The position numbers and the translations under genes are program-made. Positions 25,731-61,461 of a DNA stretch of 64,000 bases are shown here, piece by piece. Numbering within the stretch: the first letter of the stretch is position 1; each line of letters begins with the position of its first letter. Under the pieces are notes generated by a model, which was not told where the DNA came from, made no database searches, and saw nothing but the letters and a program-made list of their open reading frames with translations. Source of the stretch: Scophthalmus maximus (taxonomy: Eukaryota); assembly GCF_022379125.1 (NCBI RefSeq), contig NC_061519.1:23919101-23983100 (forward strand), read 5' to 3'.

Positions 25731-26123
<393 letters not shown>

Positions 26124-41026: not shown

Positions 41027-42868
41027 CTAGATATTGAGTCCGTCCTCCTGCAGAGCTCGAGATCCCAGACGGCTGCACTCATGCCTTCTGTCTCTGTCGC
41101 TTCCTCTCCTTTGTCCCTCCCTCCTCCGACCCTCTCCATCCTCCCTGCTCTTCCTCCTCTCCTCCTCCTCCTCCCCGTCGCCTCCCGCTCTCTCAAACTG
41201 CCTCCTGGCGCTCTCCACCCTGCTCCCTCGTTTCTCGTCACGCTCTCCTCCGTGGCGACTCCTCTGCGACGCCGACTCCTCCCTGCTCTTCCTCCTCTCC
41301 TCCTCCTCCTCCCCCTCCTCGCCTCCCGCTCTCTCAAACTGCCTCCTGGCGCTCTCCACCCTGCTCCTTCGTTTCTCGTCACGCTCTCCTCCGTGGCGAC
41401 TCCTCTGCGACGCCGACTCCTCCCTTTCCCTCGCCGCCGCCGCCGCTTCGTGACTTCGATGCGACTCTTTCCTCGCGGCGCTTTTCCCGCCGTCTTCTCG
41501 TTTTGTCCATCTCTCCGTCTCTCGCGGTTGATCCCTCGCTTCTTTACTTTCTCTCCTCTCTCCTCTGCTCGCCTGGGCTCTCCAGTCTTTTGCTCCTCGC
41601 TCCTCCTCCTCCTCCTCCTCTGTCCTCCTCCGTCGCTCCGTCCTGTCACTTTCCTTTCTGGCGAGTCTCTCCTTGTCCGTTCTGTGTTCACTCCCCCCTT
41701 CTCCGTCTCGGTTGCTTCTGCTGCTGTGCCTCCCCACGCTCCCACTTTCCTCCTCTTTCTCTCTATTCACCGGTTTCCATTCGTGCCTTATCCCTCTTTC
41801 ATGCGCTCTGCCGCTCTGGCTCCTCTGACCTTCTCTCTCAGATTTCACCCTCTCTAAACTGGGGTTTCCACTCAAGTCTTCTCGCTTCGAATCACCCGAT
41901 TTACTCTCAGCCCCCTCCCGTTCTCTCACGTCCGCCCTTTTCTGTTTTTCCTCCGTCTTTTTATTCGCACCAGCATCTGCTTTTGCCTTGTCCTGCTTGC
42001 TCTCATATTTCTCTTTTACAGCTGTTATTCTGTTCTCGGTTTCTTTGTCTCTTTTGCTTCCTTTCTGAGATTGAGATTCTTTTAAAACTTCCTCTTTAGC
42101 AGCTTTGACCATGTTCTCATTTCCCTGCTCTTTGTCCTGATCTGGTGGCTTCACCAATTTGGATTCAGATTTGCTTTCTTCTTCCGTTTTACTTTCCTTC
42201 TTTCCATCATCTTCTCTTGTCTCCTCCTCCTCCTCCTCCTTGTTGTCCTTTTTCTCTTCATCTCCCTTTTCCTTTTTCTCCTTACTTTTCAGAGTTTCCT
42301 TCTCCAGCTCTTTGTTCTTCCTCTGCTCCTCCTCAATCTTCTTGTCCAGTTTCTCCTCCAGCAGGTCCAGCTCCTGGTCCAGCTCGGCCAGCTTCTTGGG
42401 ATCCGACTCAAAGTTGTCTTCGACCTCCACCTCGATCTCCTCGATCTCCTCGTACTCCTCCAGCTCGATGCCGTCCATGGTTTTCTGCAGCTGCGTCTTG
42501 ATCTTGTTCAGCTCCAGGAGACCGCCTTGAAGGTCTTTGCAAACGTCTCTGATCTTGGCGGCGAATTTGGTTTTGGCGCCTTTGCGGAGCTCGTGGGAGT
42601 CCTTGGCGAGGAAGAAAACATCCAGGGCCAGGAAGAGGGCCGACATGACCCCCGTGGTGACGCTGATGGCCTGGGCAGCTTTGGCGGCGCCGCCTGCGGC
42701 GCCCAGAACCTGCACGGTGCTGATGAGCTTGTCGGTGTTGATCATCAGCGCTTTGCCGGCGCGGCCGCCCTCCTTCATCACATGTTTGATGTTGTGGTTC
42801 ATGGCCTTTCTGGCAGCACTCTGAGAATATTTCTCAAAGTCCCACTCCTGCAGGGTGTCCATTCCTTC
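41027..42868 (-). CDS. ApoL-domain gene, last coding exon. The N-terminal roughly 180 aa carry the C-terminal half of the ApoL domain (EGMDTLQEWDFEKY...LGAAGGAAKAAQAISVTTGVMSALFLALDVFFLAKDSHELRKGAKTKFAAKIRDVCKDLQ). A roughly 430-aa E/K/R/D/S-rich low-complexity tail follows, with stop at 41027
   Basis: 611-aa minus ORF; acceptor cctcctctag|GAAGGAATG at 42868; residues SALFLALDVFFLAKDSHELRKGAKT align with the ApoL family C-terminal amphipathic region (human [33 protein letters not shown]); AATAAA-equivalent tttatt on + strand at about 40821/40861. Confidence 0.8.
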   Translation of the reverse strand, partial: EGMDTLQEWDFEKYSQSAARKAMNHNIKHVMKEGGRAGKALMINTDKLISTVQVLGAAGGAAKAAQAISVTTGVMSALFLALDVFFLAKDSHELRKGAKTKFAAKIRDVCKDLQGGLLELNKIKTQLQKTMDGIELEEYEEIEEIEVEVEDNFESDPKKLAELDQELDLLEEKLDKKIEEEQRKNKELEKETLKSKEKKEKGDEEKKDNKEEEEEETREDDGKKESKTEEESKSESKLVKPPDQDKEQGNENMVKAAKEEVLKESQSQKGSKRDKETENRITAVKEKYESKQDKAKADAGANKKTEEKQKRADVREREGAESKSGDSKREDLSGNPSLERVKSEREGQRSQSGRAHERGIRHEWKPVNREKEEESGSVGRHSSRSNRDGEGGSEHRTDKERLARKESDRTERRRRTEEEEEEERGAKDWRAQASRGERRESKEARDQPRETERWTKREDGGKSAARKESHRSHEAAAAAREREESASQRSRHGGERDEKRRSRVESARRQFERAGGEEGEEEEERRKSREESASQRSRHGGERDEKRGSRVESARRQFERAGGDGEEEEERRKSREDGEGRRREGQRRGSDRDRRHECSRLGSRALQEDGLNI

Positions 42869-43407
42869 CTAGAGGAGGACAGAGGGTCAACACAGTCCCA
42901 GAGAGGTTAATTCTTTTTTTTTTAAAGACACATTCATTTCAAAACTGTTACTACTCGGCATTATAGCACTCTTTCCCAAAGATTTCTGACCATAAAAGAA
43001 AAAAAGAGTCATCCGGAGATGACCAGCCAGCAGGGTTAATAAGACCCAGATTTATTGCAAAAGTGCATAATTTCAGGATATTTATTTCACATTTCTCAAC
43101 TGACCGACGCCCACAATGGTGCAGAAACGATGACTCAATCATTTGATTGTGTAATTTGTCAAACATAAAACAGCATTACACATCATCACACCTCCCCTGG
43201 TGTTTAGTTTTACTTGCTGTTACTGTTTTACGTCATTGTAAATTTAACATTTTTCGAGTGTCCAACGGCTGGTCGGACAAATCGTTGCCTCAAACTCACC
43301 CTGTGATGGTCCTTTTTAACTATCATGACATTTTAGAGACCAAATCTGAAAAGGTAAAAAAAAAAACAAGCTAATTCTCTTATCTATCTGTGCAACCATT
43401 TCCTCAC

Positions 43408-43822
43408 CTGCACGAACTCCATGCACTCTCTGATGTCCTTGATCTCGTCCTGGTAGTCCTGGATCATCTTCTCCAGCTTCTTCCGGTCCATGTTCGAGTG
43501 AACGGTGTCCGTGATGTTGGCCGTCGCCGAGGCGATGCTGCCCGCCGTCGCCACGCCGATCCCCACGGCCGTGACGATGATGGAGGCACCGAAGGTGAAA
43601 GGTGCCAGGATGAGCCCCGTGATCGTGGCCAAGCTACCCGCGACGCTGGCCACCCCGCCGCCCACGGCGGCCGTCACCGTTCGCTTGTGGAACTGATCCG
43701 AGGCGTCGGCCAGGGCCAGGAGCTCCAGGATGCGTTGCTGCAGCGACGCCCCCCGCTGGTTGAACAGGCGCACGAAGAGGCGAGCTGCCATGTAGACACG
43801 GTCAGCCGCCTGCTCCAGGGCC
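43408..43822 (-). CDS. ApoL-domain gene, penultimate exon: core ApoL domain (ALEQAADRVYMAARLFVRLFNQRGASLQQRILELLALADASDQFHKRTVTAAVGGGVASVAGSLATITGLILAPFTFGASIIVTAVGIGVATAGSIASATANITDTVHSNMDRKKLEKMIQDYQDEIKDIRECMEFVQ)
   Basis: Acceptor ccctgcag|G at 43822, donor CAG|gtgagg at 43408; Gly/Ala/Ser-rich hydrophobic hairpin LAD..HK..T.A.V.G..G..G...T..GL.LAP.T.G.S...TA.GIG is diagnostic of ApoL family (Pfam PF05461) membrane-insertion region; joins last exon in frame (VQ|EGMDT). Confidence 0.8.
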
Positions 43823-44491
43823 CTGCAGGGAGACGGAGAGACGAGAGCTGTGAGGGACGGACACTCAAGAGATAAAAGGTCTCAAACACACAAGTCTGAC
43901 AAACAGCAGTCGATTAATCAATCAGTTTGTTATAGCTGGCAACATTTCGAACATTGTTTCAGTCATTTTCGAAGAAGTACTAGAAAATTCCACATATTCT
44001 CTGGTTGTTTACCAACTTGAAAAAATGACTTCACAGAATTTATCTGTTTTCCCAATTTAAGTAATTTTTGGGGGGAAGTTGGTAGACAATTTTCTTTTTT
44101 CTCAAAAGGCAAAATTTGCAGAATCCATTTTGTTAGATATGATAATGAACTGAATTGGATTTTGGAGCATTGGTCGGATTAAGCAATTGAAGATGTCACC
44201 TTGGGCTCTGGGAAGTTTTGACTGACACTTTTTTCAATGTTAATTGATATTTTGTCGACCAAATGATCAACAGACATGAAAATAATCATCAGTTGCCACT
44301 GTACCTTTACGCATATGCCCCAAGTGACAGTTGCAGGTGGACACAGGAAGACATGAATATAAATAAATATTGGCATTTATTGTTTGGCAAAGAAATAGAT
44401 AGAGACAATTAAGAAATCCCCAAATTGCCAATTTTTTTTTTTTTAAGACAATAATTAAAAAAATAAAATAAATAAATAAAACTATAATTAC

Positions 44492-44543
44492 ATTTGCTCG
44501 TCTTCCTGCTGGAAATTGGACGTCTCGTTCCATTCTGTCCAAC
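44492..44543 (-). CDS. Candidate bridging exon ((G)WTEWNETSNFQQEDEQ(M)), supplies AT of the Met codon completed by G at 43822
   Basis: Acceptor gtttccag|, donor CAAAT|gtaatt; with a 1-nt carry-in gives an open frame and restores the frame of the ApoL-domain exon. Confidence 0.45.
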
Positions 44544-44664
44544 CTGGAAACGGGCAGCAACAAAAATACAATAAGTATAATTCATAAAATACATAAAAAA
44601 AGACACATTTATATATATTATATATATATATATTACAAATAAACAGTGAGAACAATCACACTTG

Positions 44665-44704
44665 CCTTTCACCGTGTTCCACCACTCTATCAGCTCATCA
44701 GTCT
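44665..44704 (-). CDS. Candidate exon ETDELIEWWNTVK(G) with GC-AG donor
   Basis: Acceptor ttgttttcag|GAG; donor AAAG|gcaagtg is the textbook GC-donor consensus (AG|GCAAGT); phase 1 end matches next candidate exon. Confidence 0.45.
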
Positions 44705-44766
44705 CCTGAAAACAAAGACATGTTATCCACGAAGAGAAAACTGATGTTCTCGTACATATCAAGCAC

Positions 44767-45011
<245 letters not shown>

Positions 45012-45289
45012 CTGGAGAACCAAATACAACAAGGACACGACTTTTAACACACGGTTCTGAATCTTTGAACTCTCGTACTGTTCTAGTTTGATTTAGATTT
45101 CTTTATTTTGTTTTTGTTATTTTGTCGACCACACACCGACGTTCCTTTTTTCCTTTTTTGAATGACAGGCTGATAACATATGACTACGTTTAAAAAGATG
45201 GTCAGAGTTTTTGACAAAGACTCTGTTGATATTATTTCTATAATATTTCTTTCTGTACATCTATTTTTTATAATATCCTTATGACCAAC

Positions 45290-45352
45290 CTGTGCCGGGT
45301 TCAGCTCCTGCATCTCCACAGCCTCCTCGATGAGAGACATCTCATCTGCGAA
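45290..45352 (-). CDS. Candidate 63-nt phase-0 exon FADEMSLIEEAVEMQELNPAQ (acidic, B-like)
   Basis: Acceptor tttttgaag|TTC, donor CAG|gttggt; open 21 codons. Confidence 0.4.
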
Positions 45353-45595
45353 CTTCAAAAACCATTCATGGAAAATGAAAAAATAAATTCAAAAAGTGGA
45401 CGAAGATCAAATGTAGAAACAGGATATATTCATCCGAGTCTTTTATTAACTTTTTATCCCCAACTAACGTATAAAAATGCAAAAAACTTTTGAAAGTAAC
45501 ATGTTCAGCATGTTCATGTTTATGTTCTTTGATGCAGTTAAAGAACAGGAACATGGAGCAAAACAGCAAAGTGAGACCGAGGAATCACTACGCAC

Positions 45596-45649
45596 CTGAG
45601 TGGTCCTGGGTATTTTGGGAAGAGTTTTCTTGATTCGGAACGACACAAC
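45596..45649 (-). CDS. Candidate 54-nt phase-0 exon VVSFRIKKTLPKIPRTTQ (degenerate A-type: SFRIKKTLPK vs FSGMFKKSPK)
   Basis: Acceptor tttcttcag|GTT, donor CAG|gtgcgt; 18 open codons. Confidence 0.5.
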
Positions 45650-45785
45650 CTGAAGAAATAAAAAGAAGAAAACATCATGTTTTGCAGCTCAAACGCAGCA
45701 CAGCAACTTGTGCTTATATCATCTGTTGAAATAAATGCCATGTTTTCGGTATTTCTGTCATTTTTCCGAGTGAGCGACGACTCAC

Positions 45786-45857
45786 TCGTCTTTTCTTCTT
45801 GATCGTCCTCCTGCGTCTCAGCCCTCCTCCCTCTGGCGCCTCCACGTCCACGCTCTC
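45786..45857 (-). CDS. Candidate 72-nt phase-0 exon ESVDVEAPEGGGLRRRRTIKKKRR (degenerate A-type)
   Basis: Acceptor ccgttgcag|GAG, strong donor CGA|gtgagt; exactly 24 codons like canonical A exons. An alternative read-through would give a stop at 45714 (possible terminal exon of a separate array gene). Confidence 0.5.
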
Positions 45858-47431
45858 CTGCAACGGAAACCCCAAAAACATTTTGTTCAACAGCAGCAGA
45901 GCAACACGCAGGTGATCCCGCGAGGTTATCGCCTTAACCAGCTCACACAGCAACTCTCTTATTATACTATCATCATTTTAAAATGATTTATCTTTCAGAA
46001 TTTCTCTCTGTATCCATCATGAAAACAGTAGAGAATGTGAAACTCAAACCTTTCAAATCAAATAACTATGTATAGAGAGCAGAGGACTGGAAATTCAAGA
46101 AAAATTCTATTCCTCACTCTAATTATTCGACTTAAACGAGATCTCACACATCTCAGCGTTGATGGTACCGTACCTGTGGTACCACAGTTCTGGGCGTCCT
46201 CCTGAACATGCCGGCAAATCCTCCTTTTGTCTCCTGTCACGATGGAAAATCACAAAACATTTGCATGAGTCACAAGAAAGATAAGAAAACTTCCTCATTC
46301 ATCTAAACAGGTTAACACACTGAACACGACGCTCACCTTCGGGGCGTTTGTAGCTTCAAGAAGATTCTCAGTACTGGCGGAAGATTCTCCGTGTGCTGAC
46401 TGATCCTCCCGAAAAGCCATGAAATAAAATAAAAACATGCCATCAATTAGTTTAAAAGGTTTTTATTTCAGTAAACTGAAAATACCGATGTTGAAAATGT
46501 ATTTTGAACGTTCACCTGCAGAGAATCTGGTCTAGTCTCCCATTTCACAGCAGGTCTTGTCCCGTTATTGCTCATTTTAAATCTCATTTAAAATGCTACG
46601 TCTTTGATACAATTCAGGCTGATTCTATTCCATGATCATATTAAAACGTATCATTAGGGCCCGAGCCACTGGCAAGCATTGCCAGGCGAGGACGTATTGC
46701 AATTGAAAGAAATATTATTAATTCACGCTGCGACCTGCCCGAAAATCTGCACACGCATCAGAACCGGTGAACAATTTTGTATTTAGGGGTCTCGGGCATT
46801 GGCCTGCCAAAATGACTGGATAGAGCCCCTTACCACAATTATTCCCTAGCCTTAGAATTGATGTAGATCGACAAAATCTTGTTATCTTATTGTATTTGTG
46901 TCTTATTTCTTAATAAATCATCTTCTTTGAGTGTTGCTTTCCTTTGCCTCGAGTGCAAAGCACATTGGCTCGACTCCTGTTGTTTATTAATCTGCCATAT
47001 AAATACATTTATCTGGACATCTAACGCTCTGCGAGTCGCTTTCCTCAAACATTTGACTTCAAGAAGCTGCAAAGACAGAAAAACCTGGCTTTTTTATGAA
47101 AATTCATCTTTTCTCTGGAGTTTTTTGTGTTTTTGTTCGTGTGGTCGACCGATCGGAGGCATTCAAATATGTGCAGGGAACAAAACATGATGGTGAAAGC
47201 TCAATATTCGCTCCGTCAGCTGCATCCACAGACGTGGAGAAGCTCTCACCTCAGCAGCGTCGGCCAGACTGTCCCTGCTGGAGGACAGTTCCTCTGAGCA
47301 ATTGAGTGGATCCTGGAGAAATACATTTGGGAGGCATTCAGGTGGGTTGAATTTGATGATTCATACAATCATGATCATCTTAACAATGTAAATGAGAGCT
47401 TCAGCGGACGTATGAACAAATCCGGTTTCAC

Positions 47432-47503
47432 CTTAGTAGCGACGGAGCGCGGAGCCGGTTTGGGAGACTTCTTGAAGATCCCTGCGAGTCCTCCAGTCTT
47501 CTC
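47432..47503 (-). CDS. Array exon, A-type: EKTGGLAGIFKKSPKPAPRSVATK (72 nt, phase 0)
   Basis: Acceptor gtgtgtcag|GAG, donor AAG|gtgaaa; coordinates verified base by base. Confidence 0.65.
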
Positions 47504-50500
47504 CTGACACACGTGCAAACATCCACACATTAATAAATCAACAATCGGTAGCAGATAAGAAGGAGACAGGCTGATATTGTGATCGTCAGATTTTCTTTTT
47601 TACCTTCGATGTGTTTGCCTCCAACAGATTTTCGCAACTGGCAGATATTTTCTTCTCCTCGCCTGTGTTCGATTCCTGAACAGGAAATTAAATTGATTAT
47701 ATGCTATAATAATAATTATAATAATAATATAAACATTCCGTGAAGATTATTACTGTACCTCATCTGCTGTTCCCTCTGCTGGTTTCTTCTTAAACATCCC
47801 ACTGAAAATACTCTTCTCCTGAAAACGTTAAACGCAGACACATCAGGTTTGACTGTCATAGATAAATTACAGTACAATTTAAATTTTGTGGCATGCTGAA
47901 ATTTTTTTGCATATTTGAGTATACATGTTTGTATGTACGTGTTACTCTCCGTTTTACTCTGCCCTGTAATATTTGTACTCTTATATTTCTTTCCTATTTT
48001 TATGTGATCTTCAAACTGAGTTTAATTGTTTCCTATTATTTAACTTCACTTCTTCATTATTATCTCTAAAAGATAGTGCCATCTAAATATAGTTTTATTA
48101 TTATTATTATTATTATCTATGTTGATGGGGGAGTTGTCAAGTTTTATTAAAGTTGTGTGGCTCTAATACCCTAAATCTGATGTTTTCCGAATAAGAAAGA
48201 AACATCAGCGCAAACTTCAGTTTGCTTTTCAAACGCACAGGAACAGTTGTGTTGCACGATTCACCGTATTAAAACATGTGGCGTCATTTCACAGTGCTGA
48301 CATTTCAGATCTGGTTGAATAACCAACATTTCTCGACACATCACCTTGGTGTTGGTGTTTTCGGACAGACTGTCGGTACTCGCCGACAGCTCCTTCTGCT
48401 CCTCTTTGTCCTGAATAAAGAAAAACAATGGTCAGTTGGTAAATATGTGTCCGCACAGACGAGGATAATAAGAACATGAAACTAGTCGTGCTCTCACGTC
48501 TGCAGCAGCTTCATCTCCAGTCGCTTTGGGAGGTTTCTTGGGAAGAAGTCCACTGAAGAGACCGCCTTTCTCCTGACAAACACAAAGAGACACGCGTGGA
48601 TGGATTACGTTCCACCACTACTGTACTATGGATGGGTGCAAAAAACAACCACAAAGGGGGGGGGGTCCTTTCACATGTCTGTGCCTGTTGACTCATAATT
48701 GGTCCGTGTGGTGATGAGAAATGACTCTACAGTCATCAACCTGGTTTCATTTTGGACAGCGGCTTGCGAGGAGAATAAAAAGCATAATTCAAAGACCAAA
48801 CGCAGCTGATGAACATGTTTCCAAGCATCCTGTCAAATTGTTTTCTGCCTTTCAGGCATCTCAGCACACCTTTAAAAAAAAAAAGAAAGAACTAGCGTGT
48901 AGTGTGTTGAAACATGCTCTGACCTGTTACTTTACAACCTCAGATTCACATTATTGTCGCGTGTTCGAAATGGAGCTGTGTATAATTTAAAAAGTCTTTC
49001 AACACAAAATGCATGGTTTAAAGTAAAGAGAGAAGATCAAGACACGATTTTCCTAATGCATCTATATAAGATGAACATTCAGAGGAAGATGCTGCTGAGT
49101 GAAGAAGGAGATGATGAAGACGAGTTTTTGACAAACGATAACTTATGAGTGGTTATGACGGAGGTCGTCAGACACTGACCTCGTCAAACAGGTTGTCGAT
49201 GCTGGATGATCTTTTGAAGATGCCGGCCAGGCCTCCCTTTTTCTCCTGAAACACAAACTGCAGTTACTCCAATATTCAGAAATACTCAGTTTTATCGATC
49301 TTCACTGATACATTCAGCGAAAGAGAGAAAATCCAGAAAGCGACTTTGTTTCCGCGTGAACCACACAAGGACAACAACACAAGTGGATTTTCAAAGTTAG
49401 ATATTTAGTAAGTGAAAAATATAGTATTTTAATTTTATTTGACCCTTGAAGTTATTTTACAGATTAATAATTTACAAACAAACATGTTCAGGTTAATAAA
49501 ATAGGATATGATATGTCCATAACACAACATAGATTTCCAAATAGAATAGAATCCCAAATCTTTATTGAACATTTTAACTATTTTTCTAGAATCAGGTTAA
49601 ATTTTTCATAATTATTAGGCATCAATTTGCTTTAACAGTCTTGTTTTTAAATACAGATACTTACTTTGAACAAATGTTTACATACTATTATATGTCTTAT
49701 TTATAATTATATGTATACATGGAAGAAACTGTGTAATGTAAACTTTTTCTTTTTTATTTTGCTGATAATTCTTCTCTTATTTGTATTTTAAAGTATCTTA
49801 TAAGTATTTTTCTACAAGCATTAGTACTTTTGCTTAAGTAAAGACTCTTCAGCCACTGAGAAAGGATGTGAGTGTTTTCATCTTGAATAAGGTCCAGTTT
49901 AATGTGTTGGATACTTTGCTCTAACATACTTATTTTCCATTAATTCTTCTTTAATATTCAGGATTTTTTCTCTCTAGTTTTTGTCTTTGTAACTTTTTTT
50001 TATAAAGTGCAGCTGAATGTTGACCAGAACTAACAGGAAGCAGCAAACACATCAAAAACCTGTTTCTACAATCTGATTTGTCCAGAGGAGAGTGAGTGAA
50101 GAAAGGTTCTAGTTTGTTTGTCAGTCGCACCTTCAGGACGGTGGTGTCAGTCAGATTCTCACAGCTCCCCGACAACTGTTTTTCTTTGTTCCTCTCCTGC
50201 TCCTGAATTCGAACCAGAGAAGAGTCAAAGAGTCAATATCAGCTCCATCCTCTGATGATTTTAGATTGTTTATTCTTATTTTCATGCCTCTGGTTCATTC
50301 TCAGTACCTTCTCCGCTGCGCGCTCCGCTGGCTTCTGCGGCTTCTTGAACATGTTGCTGAAAATGCTTTTCTCCTACAAAATAATATTGGCGTCGGTGAA
50401 CATTTCTGAAGACAGTTTTGTCTGCAGGTGTTGTGTGCCGCATTGGACCTCGCTCACCTTGGTGGCGTTGTTCTCCGACAGGTCGTCGCTGCTGGTCGAC

Positions 50501-50589
50501 AGCTCGTCCTGGGCCTCGCTTTCCTGAAACAAGATTTTTTTTTAATTCCAAGTGATGCTGGGGGAAAACGAGTGGAAGATTGCGAGGCA

Positions 50590-51660
50590 GTTTGACGCCA
50601 GCTCTGAACAGACGGCGACATCTACTCACCGGCGACTCCGTCTTCTCTCCTGACGCTCTGGGCGTCTTTCTGAGGAGTCCGCTGAACACACCTGCACCTT
50701 TCTCCTGATGGAAACAGACGAGAAAAAGGGCTTCAGGACGTTTAAATATCTTGAGATAAAACTGTGTCACTGACCTGTTTGTTCTCAGATTGTTATTAAA
50801 AAGTTACTAACGGGAAAATCCTTAACTCTAAACCTCTCTTACCTTTTCTCTGATCTCAGACAGACTCTCGTTGCTGGCTGCCAGCTCCGTCTGCAGCGAG
50901 TCTCTATCCTGAAACACACGGAGTCACATAAATGCACCGACGAGTCCCCGCGTCACAAGATAAGAAACCGAACATGTTAAGGAATGTTTTTTTGCTTTTT
51001 TAAATGCAAGAGGTAAGAACAGGGAAGCTGTTGTTAAAAATCAACAACAAAGAACTTATTCAAGAGTGTGTCAAGATGTAATACCGTCACAAAAATGAAT
51101 CATTTGGTCTAAAGGTAATCTAAAGGCAAGGAGCAAAAAGTATCAGGGCCACTTATTGGGGAAAAAAATATGAGATTCAGAAAATGAGGTTGGGGAATTT
51201 TTTGTGGAAAAAAAAGTCATATTAAAAGAAGGAAGTCGTAATTTCACAACAACCAAGTCAGAATATTACGGGAATAAAGAGGTCATTTTAGGCCACGCGT
51301 CATTTTACCTAAGATCAGTAAAGATTAGTCCGTCGCCTGCGTCAAAATGAGGAATGTGGATCATCTTGTTAAGTTATGCTTTAAATAAAGGTTCGGTGTT
51401 ATACAAATGGTGAAATCTCTGAACAGACGGCGACATCTACTCACCGGCGACTCCGTCTTCTCTCCTGACGCTCTGGGCGTCTTTCTGAGGAGTCCGCTGA
51501 ACACACCTGCACCTTTCTCCTCTTTCTACCCACGAGACAGAAAGAGCTTTAGGATGAGACGGACCTTTACATGTTTCAATATGAAACCGTTCCACTGACC
51601 TGTTTGCTCTCCGATAGATGTTCACTGCTGCCTGAGAGCTCATGATCGGGACTTTCATCC
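50590..51660. repeat. Tandem segmental duplication inside the exon array (unit about 830 bp: 50590-51416 roughly equals 51417-51660+), duplicating an A exon and flanking intron
   Basis: Long near-identical string ctgaacagacggcgacatctactcaccggcgactccgtcttctctcctgacgctctgggcgtctttctgaggagtccgctgaacacacctgcacctttctcct present at 50590-50700 and 51417-51525. Confidence 0.8.
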
Positions 51661-54600
51661 TGTAAAAGGAAAAAACCCAAAAAACTGAGTTTAAAAGTTG
51701 TGGTAAACTTTAACTTCTTTATTAAATAATTCTTATAACAATAATTTGTTACTTTAATGGTACAAAATGTATGGAAATTCAAATGTGCAGTGAATCTACA
51801 TCTGTGCACAGATTTGAATCAGTATAAAAAAAATAAAAAAAAACCGCTATCATACAGTGAAGTGTTTAGAGAGGAAAATGGGGAAATCATGTACTTTTAC
51901 GTTGTTATTCCTAATTTCTCACAAAGTCAATCTGGAAATTGAAGTTTCAGATACGAGGCTTGAGAAACTATTCTTTCAAATGTTGAAAGTGGAAACACAA
52001 TGAAGACACGCAGGTCCATGTGTTGACACAGTTACCTCCTCAGATTCAGAAGCGTCCATAGCTTTCGCCGCCTTTTTGAATATTCCACCAAATATTCCGC
52101 CTTTTTCCTGAAACACACACACACACACAATAAAAAAAAAAACCGTGAGCGGCATCGAAGAAAGGGAAAGGGGATTGTTTCGAAGGCACGCTCGACGAGC
52201 TCACCTTGGTGCTGTTCTCAGACAGACCTTCGCGGCTGGCGGACAGCTCGCCGCCTTGAAGCAGCTTTTCCAAAGGGAGAGATTGAAAAGTAGATTATAA
52301 CCTGATACCGATTAGAGGTTTTTACTTGCATTCATCACAAACAGGATACCCAGGATAAGAACTCTATTCAGTCCAGCGTTTCTTCGGTGTTTTCATGACA
52401 AGGGGTTCGGTCACTTTGTCTGAAATATAGGCCAGATAACACTTTCATGAAAAACAACACTTAACCTGCAGAGGGAAAAGAGCAGAGAGACTTTCTCCCT
52501 GTTTCTGGGGCATTCGCTACAGGGACGGTCGACATGGATACCTCATAACTCATTAATCATGATTAATTTATTCCTCATACACACTCAGATTACACCAAAC
52601 TGTAACCCCCTTCCTAAAACTACTGGACCCCTGAAATATCTCTTTAAACCAAATCACACACAAGCTATTTCATACGATCTCCTTTTGGAAACTAATGTGA
52701 TGACTAATGTGATATCTCTTCACTCCCATTCACTGAAACTGTTTGGACCCCCCGCGGGGAGGCCAACCCCTCATGAGGAAAACCTCTGTGATGAACATTA
52801 GTTCAGGGATTCCAACCGGCAGCCTCGTTGTCACAAGGGAAACTTGTTGTGCAACGTTCAGAACAACTCCTGATCTACTGGAGTAGCTGAGCAGGAAACG
52901 CAGGAGACGCTTCTCACTTTCTCGTCTGCAGGTTTGGACGGCTTCTTGAACATTCCACTGAACGCACCTCCCTTTTCCTGCAAAACAAGTTGTTGTGTTT
53001 TAGGTTACTTCTTCCCAACAATTCCTGTATAATATCTGCAGGATTTCACACACACACACACAAAAAAAGCAAGCAGTATTCATAAGTTGAAATCAGATTG
53101 ACAGACACATTTCGAAAGGCTCCAGAGAGCGTTTCTCACGACCACACTGACCTTGGCGTGGGCCGCCTCCGACAGACTGTCGTTGCTCGCCGACAGATCT
53201 TTATGTGCCGACAGGTTCTCCTGGAACAACAGACCAAAAAGTGTCAGAAACAAAAAAACAGTAGGAGCAAAGATCAAAGGTCAAGTTCAACAAGAAGAAT
53301 ATCGTCTAACACAAACACATTTTCCAAGATGTCTCCACAAATAATAGAGCTAGAAAGTTAATCTGAATCTTATATAGATCATAAAATGATACCCCATCAT
53401 ATATTGTACGATAAGTGACGTCATGCATAGTTAAAAAATGCACTATATAGGACTGTAAATACGATTTGAATTATAAAGATCAAAAAATTATTTATGATCA
53501 TATAGTATGAATGACGTCATCAGTACAAATCTCTATGAAGTTGCCTTATCACTATATGAATAAGTTAGCATTGCCTGATTGGGGTGTGTACAGTGTGTGC
53601 AGGGTATGAATCGCCCCTTCGATGCTTTACATGATCTAATCTAGCTCCATGATAAACGACTATTTACTGTGAGTTCGCAGTTTTTGTTTGTTTGTCACAG
53701 AGAATAATTTGGGACATTTGGGGGCAGTTGCCCGTCTTTGCCAGGTTCATAGTCCAGCCTTGATTTACGGCAAAGATAATAAATGGAAATATTCTTGCTG
53801 AAAGAAAAGGATGGTCGTGATGCTTTGTATACTGTATATGGTGTCATGTACTGTAAAACATGGATCACAAGATAGATCGATGTGTATATATATAGATATA
53901 TATATATCTATATATATATAAAAACACACCCACATTGATGATAGATTAAAACGTCTGGTGAACAAAGTGTAATGAGAAAAGTGGTGTGACCTGTTTTAAC
54001 TTTGATAATCAATGAAATAAGAGGGTATGAGTCAGATGACTAGCCCCTGGTCTCCTCCTCATTTAGGGAGGAAACTGTTTCGCTCTTCCTCCTTTCCACT
54101 GAAACCCGCGTGTCATGGGTGTCATGGGACGTGCTGCTTTTTGGGCAAAATTCAAAAGGAGTGACGACCGCACCCAAACAGCTCCAACCGGCCCCCCGAG
54201 CCAGATTAGCTCTATGATGTCACCCAGTTGTCACGCAGCACAATGAAGCAGCGGTAATGTGCATTGCCGGTTGAGAGCATCTCCATGGAAACTATGCGGA
54301 AGCTGTACCTCTCCGGTTGTTCTCGGAGTCTTTCTGAGGAGCCCGCTGAACAGACCAGCTTTCTCCTGCAGGACGCAGAGAGATCATATTGAAAGCAAAC
54401 TGACTTGACTTGAATCTTCATTGTTTTGTCACGGTTCGACTCGTGCGACTCACCTTGTTGTCCGACAGGCTGTCGGTGCTGGCAGAGAGTTCGCCGTGCA
54501 GCGGCTCCGCGGCCTAAAACCACAACACACAAAAAATGTGACTCAACCACTGTGAACATGAACGCAGACCTGAAACCAGTCACCAGAAACAACAGACAGA

Positions 54601-54865
54601 CAGACGCAGCAACGTGTTTCCACACGTCGCACAAAAGCCTCCTTACTGCAGATCTCGTGTTTACAAGCGGCGGATCGAGCGGATCAAGTGTTGTTACATG
54701 TTACGTAACAACATTGTTTGGAAGATTGGAGGAATCTCATGCAGCTCCTGCAGCCAGAGAACATGTTCAGAGGCTCTTTTTTTTGGTGCCTTATTTTGAA
54801 ATGAAAAACATAATTAAAGCCAAGGACGAAATGCAAAAGACTTCAAAAGTAATAAAAAACATTAC

Positions 54866-54937
54866 CTCCTCCAGTCGTGGGCCTTCGGACATTTTGGGAG
54901 ATTTCTTGAACATCCCACTGAAAACGCCTCCTTTCTC
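54866..54937 (-). CDS. Array exon, A-type: EKGGVFSGMFKKSPKMSEGPRLEE (72 nt, phase 0)
   Basis: Acceptor gtatcag|GAG, donor GAG|gtaatg; coordinates verified. Confidence 0.65.
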
Positions 54938-55116
54938 CTGATACACAAAGAAAATATTACACGCCGACATAAAGTTTGAAGCTCATTAAAAATCATGCAG
55001 GTACTTATAAAGCTTTATGGGTGGATTATATTGTATACAGATGAGGGACAGTTAGGACTTTTACAGAAAATCCTTTCCAGTTTGCAAAAAAAATCTTAAT
55101 TCTAAACCTCTCTTAC

Positions 55117-55182
55117 TTTGTCTTTGCTCTCGGACAGACTCTCTGTGCTGGCTGCCAGCTCCATCTGCAGCGACTCTTTATC
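55117..55182 (-). CDS. Array exon, B-type: DKESLQMELAASTESLSESKDK (66 nt, phase 0)
   Basis: Acceptor gtgtttcag|GAT, donor AAA|gtaaga; near-duplicate of exon at 50830-50895 (DRDSLQTELAASNESLSEIREK). Confidence 0.65.
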
Positions 55183-56211
55183 CTGAAACACAAGGAGTCA
55201 AATAAATGAAGCAAAAGTGACGTCAAAGCGCCGACCCGTCTGTTTCAGATCGGTCATCAATCATAAGAACGGAATGTTAAGGAATGTTTTAAAATGCAAG
55301 AGGTACAAAACAGGGAAGCTGTTGTTAAAGATCCACGACAAAGAACTTATTCAAGTGTGTGTAAAGATGTGAGTCCATCACATTATAGGAGAAAAAGTCA
55401 TTCAAAAAAGAAGAGTCATACATGATTGTCTCGATCTTAGAGAAGAAATATCAAAGACGGTGGGGTAAACCTAAAGTATTTATTGGCCATAAAACATAGT
55501 TAAAGAAAGAATAAAAAAAAAATCTTAATCCACATCCGCACCAAACGTTAAGGAGTTCGTTCCCCATGTTCCCTCCGCCGAGTCTTGTGAAAATTGGTTT
55601 TGTAATTTTTGAAAAAATAGTCCAACAAACAAATACGACAATCAGACGCGGGTGAAAACATAAAGAACTTTCCTTGGCAGATGTAATAAACTGTATTTTA
55701 CTCTCCAACATATTCACACGTTGAACTGAAGCTATATAAAAATGAATTCATGACTCCGACAGTAGAGGATTAAAGCTCTTATTGGTCCGGACACATTCGA
55801 CCTCTACTTCACCATGTCTGGTGACGGCGTGGAGAATATTTGTTTTAGCAATGTTCAAGATTTGGACATGATCACCCGTCACTGTACCTGCCCAGGTGGC
55901 CCCTCCACAGGGACCTTGGGAGACTTGCGGCGAATCCCGCCGAAAAATCCTCCTTTGTCCTGGTGACGTCAAAAGGGATGAATTCACGCACGTTCACAAT
56001 GATTCTAATGTTGCATCATAATCATGTCCTGCCAACTCACCTTCGAGCTTTCAGTCAGATTTTCATTGCTGCCCGACGCGTCATCGCGTAGAGACCGTTG
56101 GTCCTGAAACACACAAACGGACAAGTTCAATGTGACGATCACGTCGCAGGGTAAAAAATGACGTCAATTTATGTCACTGCACACAAACTGGCATGTTTCA
56201 GCCGTCACCTC

Positions 56212-56283
56212 GTCAGCCTGAGCAGCATCTGCTGCTTTCGGAGTTTTCTTGAACATCGCGCTGAATATTCCTCCCTTTTCCTG
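56212..56283 (-). CDS. Array exon, A-type: EKGGIFSAMFKKTPKAADAAQADE
   Basis: Acceptor gatttcag|GAA, donor GAG|gtgacg. Confidence 0.6.
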
Positions 56284-56368
56284 AAATCATGAACAGATTC
56301 ATCCTGATCAAGCTCGGGTCTGTGTGGCCACTGCGACGGAAGATGAACGCTCATCTCTGCCGCTCACC

Positions 56369-56434
56369 TTGTTGCCGTTTTCAGACAGACTGTCGCTGCT
56401 CGCCGACAGCTTGCTCTGCGCGCCCAGACTCTCC
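56369..56434 (-). CDS. Array exon, B-type: ESLGAQSKLSASSDSLSENGNK
   Basis: Acceptor gtcgcag|GAG, donor AAG|gtgagc. Confidence 0.6.
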
Positions 56435-58261
56435 TGCGACGTCAGAGGGACGTTCACAAAAAAACGTTATCGGCCAAAGTGAAATTTAAACATGGACAGG
56501 CTTAATTAAACATATTTTGCAAAACGGCAAACTGTTATTTTGACATAGTTAGACGCAGAAAGCTATTTTTTTTTTCCCAGCTCACCTGCGGAGGCGTCTC
56601 ATCCGCCGGTTTGTCGGGTTTTTTAAAGAGGCCAGCGAAGAGGCCTCCCCTCTCCTGTGAGCAAATGTGCTTTTAGAAATGTACTGTTACACACACGGAT
56701 GGAATCTGCTTTTGTCACTGTTAAAAAAATACAGAATTAAACACAAGGGTCTTTTTTGTTTATACACATTTTGTTGCATTTGATTCAAACAGAAGCTTTT
56801 TTTTTTTTTTAACTCAAAACACTCCAAACTTGTTCTTTGACTCTTTTACCCTGCACACAAATGACCCTTGTGCTTCTCGTTTCCTCCCCGTGAACGGCAC
56901 CGTGTAGTTTCTGAAGCCGAGTTAACGCGCCACTCACCTGGGACAGTGCAGATGTTTTCTCCTCCACCTCTGCATCTTCGCGGTCACTGTCCGCTTTGCT
57001 GACCTGGCGGCGAACACATCAACCCCGAGGGAACAGGCTGGATGAGTTGAAAACTTGAAAACATGAAAGCATGAAAGCTTGACAACCACGGCAGAAGGCT
57101 GGACGTTACCGTTAGTGCAGGAGATAATCTCTCTTTGGGTGTTTTCCGGAACATCCCGGTGAGCAGATTTCCTTTGTCCTGAGGAAACGTGGAGAAAAAA
57201 TGACGTTTAAAAATCCTAAAAACATTTTTTTTTTACAGAAACAGAGAATGCTGAATACTGTATTCCCGCAGATATATATTTGCTCCACATGAAAGTGTAC
57301 ACTGTGAAATCACATCCTAAAAACAATTTCCTCCTCAGCGTTATCTACCTTGAGTGATTCCTTGTGGACAGGAGAGACGAGTGTTTGGCAGTGTTCATTT
57401 GAGCATTTGTACCAATACGGCGATTCACTAATGATTTTAAATATTTGCAGAAGCAGAACTGGCTTGTCAACATGAGAAGTCACGGGTCATCATTTTAATA
57501 CCGTTGCTGTCGATCTCTTACCCGTTTGGGTTCTGGGTTTTTTTCCGGCTTGTTTTTTTCGTTTTCGGTGGATTGTTCCTTGTCTGCGACTCCGTCCTCT
57601 GTGCTGGGAACTGGACTCGGATCTCTGCTGCCCTGAGACAAGAGTCGACAACCTTCAGCACAATATGTATCATCCTGAATTTCATATCAATACAACTTCA
57701 CAAGAGAAGGCGTGCTCATAATTTCACACAGTTTGCATCTCAAACCGTCTCCCGCCTTCTGCCTCACTATTTGTATTTAGAGCTGCCGAGTTGAATTTAC
57801 AGTTAGTTCTCTCTATGTTTTTTGTTTCTTTTTCTTGGGGGATTAACAGCAGAGGTCCCGGGCTGGATGTGAGCCAGAGACATGGAGATTAAACCTCTGA
57901 GCCTCCTACCATGGCAACCCCACAGTCAGAGCGTAAGAGTCACAGACGGAAAGTAAACGCAGCAAAAACGCCGGAAGGTAAAAGTGACACTGCAAGAGAG
58001 GAACACTTTTTGTGTGAAATTGTAAAAATAAATAAATAAATAGACTGCATTAATTCTTCGATAGGCAGAGCTCAAAGTAGAGCTGAGGGTGAAATATTAT
58101 CGTGCCACATTCAAGTGGATAGAGTACAGACCGTTTTTCATTTTATGTGAGAATCAGTAAAAAAAAGAGATTAAAGTCAGTCACAGCGATCCACCCAGGC
58201 TCCATCCATCAACCACAGGAAAAACATTAGAACATATCTTTCAAATAAAATAAAATACAAG

Positions 58262-58590
58262 CAAATATCAAACCTAGCGACCACCACCGTCAACACCACC
58301 GTCAACACCACCGTCAGCACCACCATCACCACCACCACTACCACCACTACCACCATCAGCACCGTCAGCACCTTCAAAAGCGTCAGCACCACCCTCACCA
58401 CCATCTCCACCACCATCACCACCTTCAACACCACCGTCAACACCACCATCACCACCGTCCACACCACCGTCAGCACCACCATCACCACCGTCCACACCAC
58501 CGTCAGCACCACCATCACCACCGTCAACACCACCATCACCACCATCAACACCACCACTACCACCGTCAGCACCGTCAGCTGAACAAGGAG
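58262..58590. repeat. ACC/GGT-rich minisatellite (12-15 bp units caccaccgtcaacacc / caccaccatcacc), about 330 bp
   Basis: Tandem periodic units; on the minus strand reads (GGD/GGV/GGA)n in one frame and (VVL/TVV)n in another; preceded by a plausible minus-strand acceptor cttgttcag at about 58590. Confidence 0.8.
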
Positions 58591-58761
58591 TTCTGGTTTA
58601 GAAAACCTCGGAAGCTGCAGCCACCACCAGCAGAAAACACAGAACCAGACGGTTCTTCTCTTCGTACCTTCGGTGACGACTTGAACTGCAAACCTTTCAT
58701 CACCCCCTTCAGACCCGCCTGTCAACCACAGTCACATGTCACATGCTGGCGGATTAAGACC

Positions 58762-58908
<147 letters not shown>

Positions 58909-59745
58909 GGTTTGCTGCCAGCAGCCTGTTTGGCTGGAGCGTCGGCAGTTCTATCCTCTTCCTCACAGTCGTGGAACGCGTACGCCTGATGAGAACAAAA
59001 AGAAGAAGAAGAAATTCGGTGAACTGCTGATTCAAAAAATCGACTTCTGCTTTATTTATCTTCTGTGTCTAAAACATTATAGATATACACTGTATTTATT
59101 CCACGCTTTTCTTCGATTTGATGATTCAGCGACTCACCTGATGCTAATGCATATTCACCAGCCAATTTATATCAACACTGAATCATAAACACACACCTAC
59201 TGATCACACACCCACACACGCCTGTTTGCCACCAGAAACCTGTTGAGCATCTTTTTTGCACATTGACACACGTGAATTCATCCTTTCTATACTTTATCTT
59301 ATGAAGGCATTCATATCGATTTTTTTATTCTTACACACACTTTTATTTGATTGTCTCAATAACTACAAATGTACAGGTTTTGAAAAGCTAATAGGATTCA
59401 GGATGTGAGGTGCATGTTTAAGTACACAGATGTTCATCAGTGTGTGTACTGTAAGATGGTGTGCATGTCAAAATGAATGTGGTATTACTCTAAGTTTATA
59501 TACAAATGAAGCAGCCAATGGAAATCAGTTCCTGATTCACTGGCACTAACTATAAAACTGCCCTCCGCTGAATTAACAATTTGTCTCCGCTACCGTACAT
59601 CCTCTCTCATGTCCCTGTAAATACTAAAATTATAAACACACCAGAAACCTTATAAAGTTAACACAACAGTAATGGCATCAACGTGTACAAGGTACATTCA
59701 GGTAATATCTGTTTGACTGTGCAGAGAGGAGCTGTTCTTACGGTG

Positions 59746-59811
59746 AACGTTGGCGTCTTCTCCTTTTGGCTCCGGCGAAACATTCCGGTCAGGACCGACT
59801 GATTGCTCTGC
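59746..59811 (-). CDS. Upstream A-like exon SNQSVLTGMFRRSQKEKTPTFT
   Basis: Acceptor ctctgcag|AGC, donor ACC|gtaaga; 22 open codons. Confidence 0.5.
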
Positions 59812-59849
59812 AGTACCACGACGCACGTGTCAATGACGAGGAAGATATT

Positions 59850-59862
<13 letters not shown>

Positions 59863-59902
<40 letters not shown>
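59863..59902. repeat. (TA)n microsatellite, 20 units
   Basis: Dinucleotide run. Confidence 0.95.
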
Positions 59903-59904
<2 letters not shown>

Positions 59905-59955
59905 CTTCATATATATTTGGTCAGAGGTGGAAGACAGCACTTCCACCTGTGGTAC

Positions 59956-60021
59956 CTGTTTGAAATCCGCTTCATCTTTGGAATCTCCGGCAGCTTCCGG
60001 TTTGTCACTTTGTCTGGACTT
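59956..60021 (-). CDS. Candidate exon KSRQSDKPEAAGDSKDEADFKQ
   Basis: Acceptor cctccgcag|AAG, donor CAG|gtacca; 22 open codons. Confidence 0.45.
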
Positions 60022-60180
60022 CTGCGGAGGAGGATGAGGAAGAGGAAGGACGTTGATCTGCGATTTATAAAAAAACGAGCACGTACAGAAGTAATGTGGT
60101 GTTTTATTGTTTGTGTACCTTTGTGTCCTCAGTGTGTACCCGCCAGCGCTGGCTGTGTCTGCTTGTTGCATCCAGTTCCT

Positions 60181-60199
60181 GCACAAAACACACACACAC

Positions 60200-60248
<49 letters not shown>
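60181..60248. repeat. (CA)n microsatellite
   Basis: Dinucleotide run. Confidence 0.9.
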
Positions 60249-60253
<5 letters not shown>

Positions 60254-60494
60254 CCCAGGAGGGAACAATAACTTTATAAAATGATACTGGAAACAGGAAA
60301 GAAACATGAAACATGAAACCTTGAGTAGCTTTGGGTGGTTCGTTACTGCAACCTGTTCTCACACCAAACTCCAAACTGCAGGCAACGATGACTCACTCCG
60401 ATCTCAATGAAAAAGTCTCGACATAAAGCAAACATAGTCCTATTAATACATTAAACCCTCAGAAACATCAAACATATTTGGGTGTACTGTACCT

Positions 60495-60557
60495 TTTCCG
60501 TGGGTCGAGGTGGAATCACAGGAGTTTCAGACGGATTCTCTTTGTTTCCTTTGTCCT
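60495..60557 (-). CDS. Candidate exon DKGNKENPSETPVIPPRPTEK (PxxP-containing)
   Basis: Acceptor gtgtcag|GAC, donor AAG|gtacag. Confidence 0.45.
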
Positions 60558-61401
60558 GACACAGACGGAAAAAAAGGTTTAAGTCATTTAATATAATTTA
60601 ATTGTTTGGACAATAATCCACATAGTGTAGTAAACATAAGCAGATTCTTAATTAAAATTAGTACAAAGGCCACATATTTAATATGTATATTGATGTTTTA
60701 ATATGAGATGTAAAGCAAATGCATGACCAACTGATTTAGTTTGTCCCTAAATAAATAAATGTCTGGTTGGCTTTAAAATGATATTCTAGATATTCTAGAT
60801 ATTCTCTATTCTGTGATTCACATAATAAAAATTAACAGCAATCTGAAAAAAGCAGTTAATACCTCATTGATTGTGGCTGCTGCTCTTTTCACTCTGTACT
60901 GTGTCTGAGTCCGTTCCTGGAAAGAAAAAAAGAAAAGTTAATAAAAACGCTATCATTCAAACTCGCTAATTCTCCTCATTTTCTCTCAGATCGTTTCAAT
61001 GTCAGTGCTCCACACAGAAATGTTCTAACCCAGAACCTTCTTGCTGTGCTGTGACAGTGCAAACCACTGTGATGCTCCTGATTCAATATTCAATATCTTT
61101 ACAAAAAGGTGTGCGAGTGCAAAAAAAGAGACTTCAGATCTTCTCCACTACAAAAAAATCGACTTAAATGTTCCCAGATGTTTAGGGCACGTCGGCCAAC
61201 CACATCTGCTCCGCGGGGGAGGAACTCTGAGACGCACGGGGGAAAGAACATGGACGAAAAGCCATTTCAGGAAATTACATTTGAAAACCTACAGGCTATG
61301 AAAAGAGCACGAGTGTCTTCAAGGTTGACTGCCACTGTATCGTTTGACTTTGTGTACACAAAAAACCACCGGAGATAAAAAAGACTGTTGGTGTCGGACT
61401 C

Positions 61402-61461
61402 ACGGCGTCTGAAGGTCGCGGCGGCACCAGAGGAGTCGGCTTCTCCGGGTCACTTGTCTTA
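61402..61461 (-). CDS. Candidate exon IKTSDPEKPTPLVPPRPSDA (PxxP-containing)
   Basis: Acceptor tctccccag|ATT, donor GCC|gtgagt; 20 open codons. Confidence 0.45.

Follow-up and report, generated by a model that had tools for sequence, protein, structure and literature searches.

Paired small-exon modules form the N-terminal half of a long apolipoprotein L family gene in turbot and other teleosts

The apolipoprotein L (ApoL) family (PF05461), whose human members are APOL1-6 and APOLD1, includes proteins with roles in kidney disease and trypanosome killing (APOL1), in the killing of bacteria (APOL3) and in the endothelium (APOLD1), and the control of their membrane activity is poorly understood. 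The mammalian APOLs are proteins of about 280-430 residues with no known repeat array. Here we describe a member of very different proportions, encoded in a 64,000-nucleotide (nt) stretch of the genome of the turbot Scophthalmus maximus (assembly GCF_022379125.1, NC_061519.1, positions 23,919,101 to 23,983,100; hereafter the window), in which an array of small, alternating coding exons makes up the N-terminal half of a long ApoL gene found in teleosts, of the orthologue group automatically named apold1a / si:rp71-1g18.13. As expected of the family, its C-terminal 300 residues fit the ApoL profile almost end to end and, as in most intracellular APOLs, there is no signal peptide; unlike them, it carries about 1000 extra residues ahead of the ApoL domain, from about 40 small phase-0 exons, and a charged tail of about 450 residues. 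A study of APOL evolution describes no repeat array (PMC8557400), and the zebrafish gene has been treated as a short APOL1-like protein, with no mention of such tails (PMC4492502; PMC4854397). The literature on apold1a, on apold1 in zebrafish and on apolipoprotein L with repeats in zebrafish or other teleosts likewise yielded no description of the repeat. What is new, then, is a repeat with neither a Pfam model nor a literature description that we could find; the proteins that contain it are already in the databases, and the host family is known.

A first-pass annotation made from the letters alone had taken the array for a separate novel repeat protein at 46175-57636; it is instead one part of a 50-exon gene whose other exons lie outside that interval. 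The model (61837..41027, minus strand), which we built by tblastn of homologues onto the window and by reading of the exon flanks, encodes 1789 residues with every exon used. Exons 1-46 are all in phase 0, and AG and GT bound every exon save for a single GC donor. From the start codon (MEACMM...) the product passes through two PPRP motifs and then the array of modules. A polybasic part (RRRRTIKKKRR, then VVSFRIKKTLPKIP) and a set of acidic exons follow, a ELIEWWNTVKGW/ELIEWWNTV motif leads into the ApoL exons, and a Lys/Glu/Arg-rich tail closes the protein with ...EDGLNI*, as in homologues. The translation of exons 47-50 matches PF05461 with E 1e-32 (114.2 bits against a cut-off of 25.9; profile positions 41-297 of 298), and the homologues give E-values of 1e-29 to 1e-33. 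The matching region includes a long hydrophobic hairpin, a later hydrophobic helix and a C-terminal H-x-L-x-K-G-A-K helix region, and the orthologue model discussed below also shows helices in this part. Windows of 19 residues exceed 1.6 on the Kyte-Doolittle scale only at residues ~1090-1130 and ~1230-1260, both within the ApoL domain. No signal-peptide-like segment is found at the N-terminus, where the best 12-residue Kyte-Doolittle mean in the first 50 residues is -0.17 (start MEACMMTTEVKKKPKP). Two intron-free contigs from Logan bear on splicing: L002 (SRR10006208 contig 539; 4743 nt) holds a single uninterrupted open reading frame of 1118 residues running from the modules into the ApoL domain, and L003 (SRR28040489; 517 residues) does likewise for the array of the second paralogue; both look like assembled mRNA.

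In translation, EKGGxFSGMFKKxPK peptides recur in all three minus-strand frames from about 59.8 to 46.2 kilobases. By enumerating open phase-0 AG...GT intervals and then placing each module peptide, we resolved positions 57632 to 46174 of the minus strand, on which all the array exons lie, into 32 open phase-0 exons of 57-111 nt with AG...GT at each edge, most of them with a polypyrimidine tract and CAG acceptor and a GTRAGT donor. Sixteen are A exons (consensus EKGG-[VLIM]-FSG-[MI]-FKK-[ST]-PK), fifteen are B exons (E-L-S-[AG]-S-x-D-[SN]-L-S-E) and one is a linker, giving 31 modules in the order linker, eleven A-B pairs, A, three A-B pairs, B, A. The alternation first proposed, one module per symmetric phase-0 exon, is thus upheld by the reading frames and splice sites in the window, and it recurs in 120 homologues. 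The proposed interval also contains these modules, although its first exon is the linker, neither A nor B, and the array begins earlier, with a further A-like exon outside it (exon 8 in Table 1). The sizes given as typical, 72 nt for A and 66 nt for B, are indeed modal, but hold for only 5 of 17 and 6 of 15 exons; the charges (+4/+5 for A, -5/-7 for B) were overstated: whole A exons carry a net charge of between -1 and +5, with a median of +2, and whole B exons one of between -1 and -6, with a median of -3. Compared with shuffles, the array is strongly enriched in [FLMI][KR][KR] (15 against 2.5 expected, z 8.4) and also in [ST]P (z 3.2) and S-x-[DE] (27 against 17, z 2.9), the last as the first-pass annotation had it. 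The concatenated array of 729 residues matches no Pfam family at E <= 0.1, and neither do the N-terminal 228 residues or the C-terminal tail in Pfam scans; an Rfam scan of the whole window found nothing.

A protein search with the 729-residue array returned 170 homologues, the named ones all teleost, mostly of 1000-1270 residues and almost all with PF05461; annotated proteins of 1463-1703 residues occur in sole, sardine, fugu, trout and smelt. The view that the module pair matches no family therefore stands for Pfam and the literature and falls for the sequence databases, where homologous predicted proteins are already public for well over 100 teleost species under inconsistent automatic names (apolipoprotein L1, apold1a, claspin-like, titin homolog, nucleolar protein dao-5-like, starmaker-like, dentin sialophosphoprotein, nucleolar and coiled-body phosphoprotein 1-like). 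A profile made from 14 A+B units of the window and searched against 1.84 billion representative proteins gave 96 matches, with the modules in ApoL-family proteins only: every match of at least 700 residues with modules also has an ApoL domain, and two long matches without modules are compositional. Short A-only matches, considered as candidates for other protein families, proved to be unspliced read-throughs of open reading frames of the same genes. Species names, looked up for part of the matches, are all teleost (eels, moray, herring, sardine, catfish, salmonids, smelt, cod relatives and many percomorphs), and no non-teleost relative appeared among the 96 matches or the named clusters. Separate A and B profiles recover 824 A and 565 B instances from 120 homologues, where the two kinds alternate as they do in the window, far beyond chance. 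By identity of the ApoL domain to that of the window, the homologues fall into two paralogue groups, one at 70-92% (apold1a / si:rp71-1g18.13, to which the window belongs) and one at ~44% ('apolipoprotein L1'). A/B arrays, PPRP motifs and WWNTV are common to both groups, arranged in a different order in each, and in several species the two paralogues lie in tandem, on one contig with neighbouring locus tags. The second paralogue is absent from the window outside the gene (tblastn with P0055 and P0027). In the 'apolipoprotein L1' group many ostariophysan proteins are short, at 404-690 residues, which indicates that the arrays can shrink.

The exon layout is itself ancient. When the European eel protein P0015 was placed on its own genomic DNA, all A modules (72-75 nt, with a single one of 54 nt) proved to be separate phase-0 exons between short introns, as did almost all B modules (63-72 nt, with a single one of 48 nt), so that the correspondence of exon and module dates back to the base of the teleosts. 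Across unique instances the logos read E-K-G-G-[VLIM]-F-S-G-[MI]-F-K-K-[ST]-P-K-P for A (n = 600) and D-D-L-S-A-x-S-E-L-S-[AG]-S-N-D-[SN]-L-S-E-N for B (n = 432), with F6, G8, F10, K11, K12 and K15 invariant in A and S10, S12 (99%), D14 and L16 (97%) in B. For most window modules the closest counterpart is the collinear module of sole or mackerel and not another module of the window, which argues for an old array with stable positions; the motifs are kept across teleosts, and so is much of the order of modules. At the same time the array is still turning over, as recent segmental duplications attest. Module copies are 60-75% identical in DNA, and two younger intragenic duplications that include intron are at 100% (50602-50706 and 51417-51521) and ~88% (50815-50934 and 55089-55208), in agreement with the exon duplication first proposed. 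The 100% copy stops at the 5' edge of exon 28 (51519-51445), whose acceptor context is poor because the upstream acceptor region was lost, and this exon may be a pseudo-exon. Within a species, annotated isoforms are distinguished by in-frame stretches of 93 and 141 residues, which make up two and three A+B units.

As to what such an array might do, AlphaFold2 run on the Dissostichus orthologue P0003 (39 aligned sequences) gives no secondary structure and a predicted local distance difference test score (pLDDT) of 30-43 across the array, with helices only from the WWNTV region onward, and the array is accordingly predicted to be intrinsically disordered. Exons 3 and 5 each carry a PxxPPRP motif, which we take to resemble closely the proline-rich SH3-binding region of p47phox; Pfam p47_phox_C (PF08944) is recorded on several homologues and appears as a weak match in a Pfam scan. 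A catfish paralogue has the PPRP exons in repeated form, interspersed among A/B modules. These SH3-ligand-like motifs suggest a cytosolic tail. The A module recalls in part the MARCKS effector domain, as a short run, predicted to be unstructured, of aromatic and hydrophobic residues next to Lys/Arg, with Ser/Thr as a potential phospho-switch (FSGMFKKSPK in A, FSFKKSFK in MARCKS); similar basic-hydrophobic membrane segments are the WSK motifs of AKAP12 and possibly motifs of BCAS1. Wimley-White interfacial energies of the A cores are favourable, at a mean of -1.95 kcal/mol per 8 residues that are followed by +2 to +4 of charge, and those of the B modules are unfavourable (mean +1.58). Unlike MARCKS-type segments, the A unit is far less charged (about +3), is repeated 15-17 times as opposed to one to three, and is strictly paired with an acidic serine module; the 729-residue array has no Pfam match to MARCKS-type or WSK (PF03832) families at E <= 0.1. 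The likeness is a functional analogy and not homology.

With moderate confidence, we favor the view that the array is the disordered, most likely cytosolic N-terminal half of a teleost long ApoL protein and acts as a multivalent weak membrane anchor tunable by splicing and phosphorylation. Under this proposal, the A core (GG, a hydrophobic residue and F-S-G-M-F, then K-K-[ST]-P-K) would serve as a weak, unstructured anchor at the membrane interface in the manner of the MARCKS effector domain, through insertion of its aromatic and hydrophobic residues together with a charge of about +3. The B module would be an acidic serine cluster, the negative charge of which could be raised by cytosolic acid-directed kinases. 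Some 15 such weak anchors might sum to a strong affinity for acidic membranes beside the ApoL domain. Three factors could tune this affinity: the number of symmetric cassette exons retained in the mRNA, phosphorylation both of B and of the [ST]-P motif of A, and the recruitment of SH3 partners via the PPRP motifs. Several points weigh against such a role. We infer membrane binding, phosphorylation and topology of the tail from sequence features; the AlphaFold2 model is of low confidence throughout (mean pLDDT 43) and comes from the Dissostichus orthologue; the A core has about +3 of charge, where the MARCKS effector domain reaches +13, and the net charge of complete A exons often lies close to zero. 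Sites of the CK2 consensus [ST]xx[DE] are no more frequent than composition predicts (26 against 24 expected from shuffles, z 0.5), and we have rejected CK2 as the reading of the serine clusters. Finally, the strict conservation of B (S12 at 99%, L16 at 97%) looks more like that of a specific binding motif than of a simple charge spacer, so that B, and perhaps A, may have a docking function.

Alternatively, both modules may be docking motifs for folded partners, for instance calmodulin on A and a phospho-dependent reader on B, in which case the array would be a multivalent scaffold or a condensate-forming polyampholyte and not a membrane binder. The very strong conservation of single positions, typical of short linear motifs, would be explained by this, as would the predicted disorder, the retention of positional identity of modules across species and the presence in the same tail of the SH3-ligand-like exons that are interleaved with modules in catfish. 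However, no Pfam or PDB match ties the array modules to a known motif family, and the A core, with its Gly-Gly, two aromatic/hydrophobic pairs and Lys-Lys, equally resembles an interfacial membrane anchor; we regard docking as possible, if on the whole unlikely.

A further thought, prompted by the ~22-24-residue length of the modules, the proline in many A modules and the 'apolipoprotein' name of the host family, is that each module is an amphipathic helix and the array coats lipid like the 11/22-mers of exchangeable apolipoproteins or like perilipins. The helical hydrophobic moment of A does rise modestly over shuffles (z 3.6), but the top window spans S-P-K-P in a module whose core is rich in Gly, the moment of B does not exceed that of shuffles (z -1.1) and AlphaFold2 shows no helix in the array. 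Secondary-structure and helix prediction thus gave no stable helix for the A module, the core of which is rich in Gly and Pro, where an amphipathic segment had first been supposed; with the moment weak in A and absent in B and no helices predicted, we rejected the helix as the principal reading and hold it to be improbable.

The enrichment of S-x-[DE], the almost invariant S12-x-D14 of B and automatic names such as 'starmaker-like' and 'dentin sialophosphoprotein' would also fit a luminal or secreted acidic phosphoprotein of the starmaker or SCPP kind, phosphorylated by the Golgi casein kinase Fam20C. The exons of SCPP genes are all in phase 0, a property shared by exons 1-46 and all the array introns here. 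SCPP proteins and Fam20C substrates differ from the array protein in their signal peptide, since the latter has no signal-peptide-like N-terminus and its sole hydrophobic, transmembrane-like segments lie ~1090 residues downstream, in the ApoL domain. The lack of a signal peptide makes the Golgi casein kinase-type sites of the first-pass annotation unlikely, and on this ground we rejected the Fam20C reading; the SH3-ligand-like and polybasic motifs of the same tail fit the cytosol, the names mirror composition only, and a secreted product is, in our estimate, quite improbable. Lastly, we consider it very improbable that the ApoL domain is all that the real gene encodes, the small exons being repeat DNA that has decayed or is not expressed: one exon does look like a recent pseudo-exon and many ostariophysan paralogues are short, but none of the 42 upstream exons breaks the reading frame or the phase, nearly all have good splice sites, motifs and module order are conserved across teleosts, and an intron-free contig links the modules to the ApoL domain.

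Two other systems offer parallels in construction. Treacle (TCOF1) has roughly one repeat per exon, and the array resembles Treacle and Nopp140 (NOLC1) in that exon duplication has produced a disordered polyampholyte in which acidic, Ser-rich stretches alternate with basic ones. A LisH domain stands at the N-terminus of Nopp140 and Treacle; neither LisH nor any other Pfam family was found on the N-terminal 228 residues or the array, which, unlike these proteins, has no long acidic serine runs, is not enriched in CK2 sites and is joined to a membrane-insertion domain. The Nopp140-like automatic names of homologues come from composition. The amplification of the Piccolo zinc finger in teleosts is comparable as lineage-specific tandem growth of a small coding unit in a conserved vertebrate gene family, the unit here being a pair of disordered motifs and not a folded domain (PMC3484663).

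Taken together with the membrane-anchor proposal, the A/B pair could be seen, tentatively, as two short linear motifs that occur together across teleosts, one a weak membrane anchor of basic and aromatic residues and the other an invariant L-S-x-S-x-D-x-L phospho-motif. The pair would then have been kept for well over 200 million years only before ApoL domains, as an N-terminal regulator, tunable by splicing and phosphorylation, of where and whether the ApoL pore or insertion domain meets a membrane, and would lack a counterpart in mammalian APOLs. Teleost long ApoL genes in any case place about 1000 residues of conserved, exon-modular and alternatively spliced disordered sequence ahead of the ApoL domain. 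If this tail governs membrane targeting, it would provide a case in nature of splicing that changes how many anchors a protein has. There is also a bearing on fish models of APOL1, the ostariophysan paralogues looked at being short, and a practical gain in better annotation, as the automatic names (claspin-like, titin homolog, starmaker-like, dao-5-like) are misleading.

Table 1. Exons of the turbot long ApoL gene, in transcript order (window positions)
Feature	Position	Strand	Basis
Exon 1, start codon (MEACMMTTEVKKKPKP); matches N-termini of homologues P0001 and P0023	61790..61837	-	homologue N-termini (MESCMMKPEVKKKP..., MEACMMKPGVKTKP...)
Exon 2 (PKPAPKPAG), phase 0	61608..61634	-	flank reading
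Exon 3, first PPRP motif (EKPTPLVPPRPSDA), SH3-ligand-like	61404..61463	-	interval enumeration
Exon 4 (ERTQTQYRVKRAAATINE)	60863..60916	-	flank reading
Exon 5, second PPRP motif (SETPVIPPRPTEK)	60493..60555	-	interval enumeration
Exon 6	60119..60178	-	interval enumeration
Exon 7	59956..60021	-	interval enumeration
Exon 8, first A-like module (SNQSVLTGMFRRSQKEKTPTFT)	59742..59807	-	tblastn to P0001 and P0007; A-profile match
Exon 9, acidic linker; donor GT is first unit of (GT)67 microsatellite	58908..58985	-	flank reading, repeat scan
Exon 10 (AGLKGVMKGLQFKSSPK), basic	58668..58718	-	flank reading
Exon 11, linker, 111 nt (GSRDPSPVPSTEDG...PEPKR)	57522..57632	-	peptide placement
Exon 12, A module (DKGNLLTGMFRKTPKE...)	57110..57178	-	peptide placement
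Exon 13, degenerate acidic module in B position	56938..57003	-	peptide placement
Exon 14, A module	56586..56654	-	peptide placement
Exon 15, B module (KLSASSDSLSE)	56368..56433	-	peptide placement
Exon 16, A module	56209..56280	-	peptide placement
Exon 17, B module	56041..56103	-	peptide placement
Exon 18, A module (DKGGFFGGIRRKSPK)	55888..55959	-	peptide placement
Exon 19, B module; copy of exon 29 with flanking intron, ~88% identical in DNA	55117..55182	-	DNA self-comparison
Exon 20, A module (EKGGVFSGMFKKSPK)	54866..54937	-	peptide placement
Exon 21, B module	54454..54513	-	peptide placement
Exon 22, A module	54309..54365	-	peptide placement
Exon 23, B module	53152..53220	-	peptide placement
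Exon 24, A module	52918..52977	-	peptide placement
Exon 25, B module, weaker AAG acceptor	52205..52264	-	peptide placement
Exon 26, A module	52036..52107	-	peptide placement
Exon 27, B module	51600..51659	-	peptide placement
Exon 28, A module, recent copy of exon 30 at 100% identity; candidate pseudo-exon	51445..51519	-	DNA self-comparison
Exon 29, B module	50843..50908	-	DNA self-comparison
Exon 30, A module	50630..50704	-	DNA self-comparison
Exon 31, B module	50458..50523	-	peptide placement
Exon 32, A module (EKSIFSNMFKKPQK)	50308..50373	-	peptide placement
Exon 33, B module	50131..50202	-	peptide placement
Exon 34, A variant (EKKGGLAGIFKRSSSIDNLFDE); 90% identity to collinear module of sole and mackerel	49180..49245	-	module comparison
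Exon 35, A module	48498..48572	-	peptide placement
Exon 36, B module	48345..48410	-	peptide placement
Exon 37, A module	47759..47818	-	peptide placement
Exon 38, B module	47604..47675	-	peptide placement
Exon 39, A module (EKTGGLAGIFKKSPKPAPRS)	47432..47503	-	peptide placement, module comparison
Exon 40, B module	47250..47312	-	peptide placement
Exon 41, B module	46337..46405	-	peptide placement
Exon 42, last A module (ETKGGFAGMFRRTPR)	46174..46233	-	peptide placement, module comparison
Exon 43, polybasic stretch (GGGLRRRRTIKKKRR)	45786..45857	-	tblastn, flank reading
Exon 44 (VVSFRIKKTLPKIP), almost invariant among orthologues	45596..45649	-	flank reading, orthologue comparison
Exon 45, acidic	45290..45352	-	tblastn, flank reading
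Exon 46, acidic (ESTVEVQPVEMATYPTE); donor is start of (GT)85 microsatellite	44940..45011	-	tblastn, flank reading
Exon 47 (ETDELIEWWNTVK), ends in phase 1, GC donor	44666..44705	-	flank reading
Exon 48 (GWTEWNETSNFQQEDEQM)	44492..44543	-	tblastn, flank reading
Exon 49, ApoL domain first half, hydrophobic hairpin (GLILAPFTFGASIIVTAVGIGVA)	43408..43822	-	tblastn 88-90% identity to P0007 and P0001; Pfam ApoL
Exon 50, ApoL domain second half, Lys/Glu/Arg-rich tail with 141-nt tandem duplication, stop codon (...EDGLNI*)	41027..42868	-	tblastn, Pfam

Some features of the gene stand apart from the array. The hairpin region in exon 49 (GLILAPFTFGASIIV...) has a weak but significant sequence match (E 1.7e-4) to PDB 6tao ('Non-hemolytic enterotoxin lytic component L1') and 6w08 ('Motility Associated Killing Factor E'), which we take to be components of bacterial alpha-pore-forming toxins and presumably a hint at a common membrane-insertion hairpin. 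The C-terminal tail contains, at 41139-41425, a coding 141-nt tandem duplication (2.1 copies, 96% match, ~47 residues per copy, with a peptide of roughly RKSREESASQRSRHGGERDEKR.SRVESARRQFERAGG), which is a second coding repeat of the gene, independent and recent. The sole non-GT donor of the model lies at 44666 (AAAG/gcaagt, after ...WWNTVK). In the transcript sense, (GT)n runs directly adjoin two donors, with 67 repeats at 58773-58907 (exon 9) and 85 at 44770-44939 (exon 46), and these microsatellites could affect the splicing of nearby cassette exons. The intron between exons 10 and 11 holds, at 58280-58573, a GGT/GAT-rich minisatellite (periods 9, 12, 21 and 33) that creates long spurious open reading frames on both strands. 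Beyond the gene, on the opposite (plus) strand at 25731-26123, an exon with an RRM domain (Pfam RRM_1, E 1.5e-13) and an N-terminus like that of hnRNP C or RALY belongs to a neighbouring gene.

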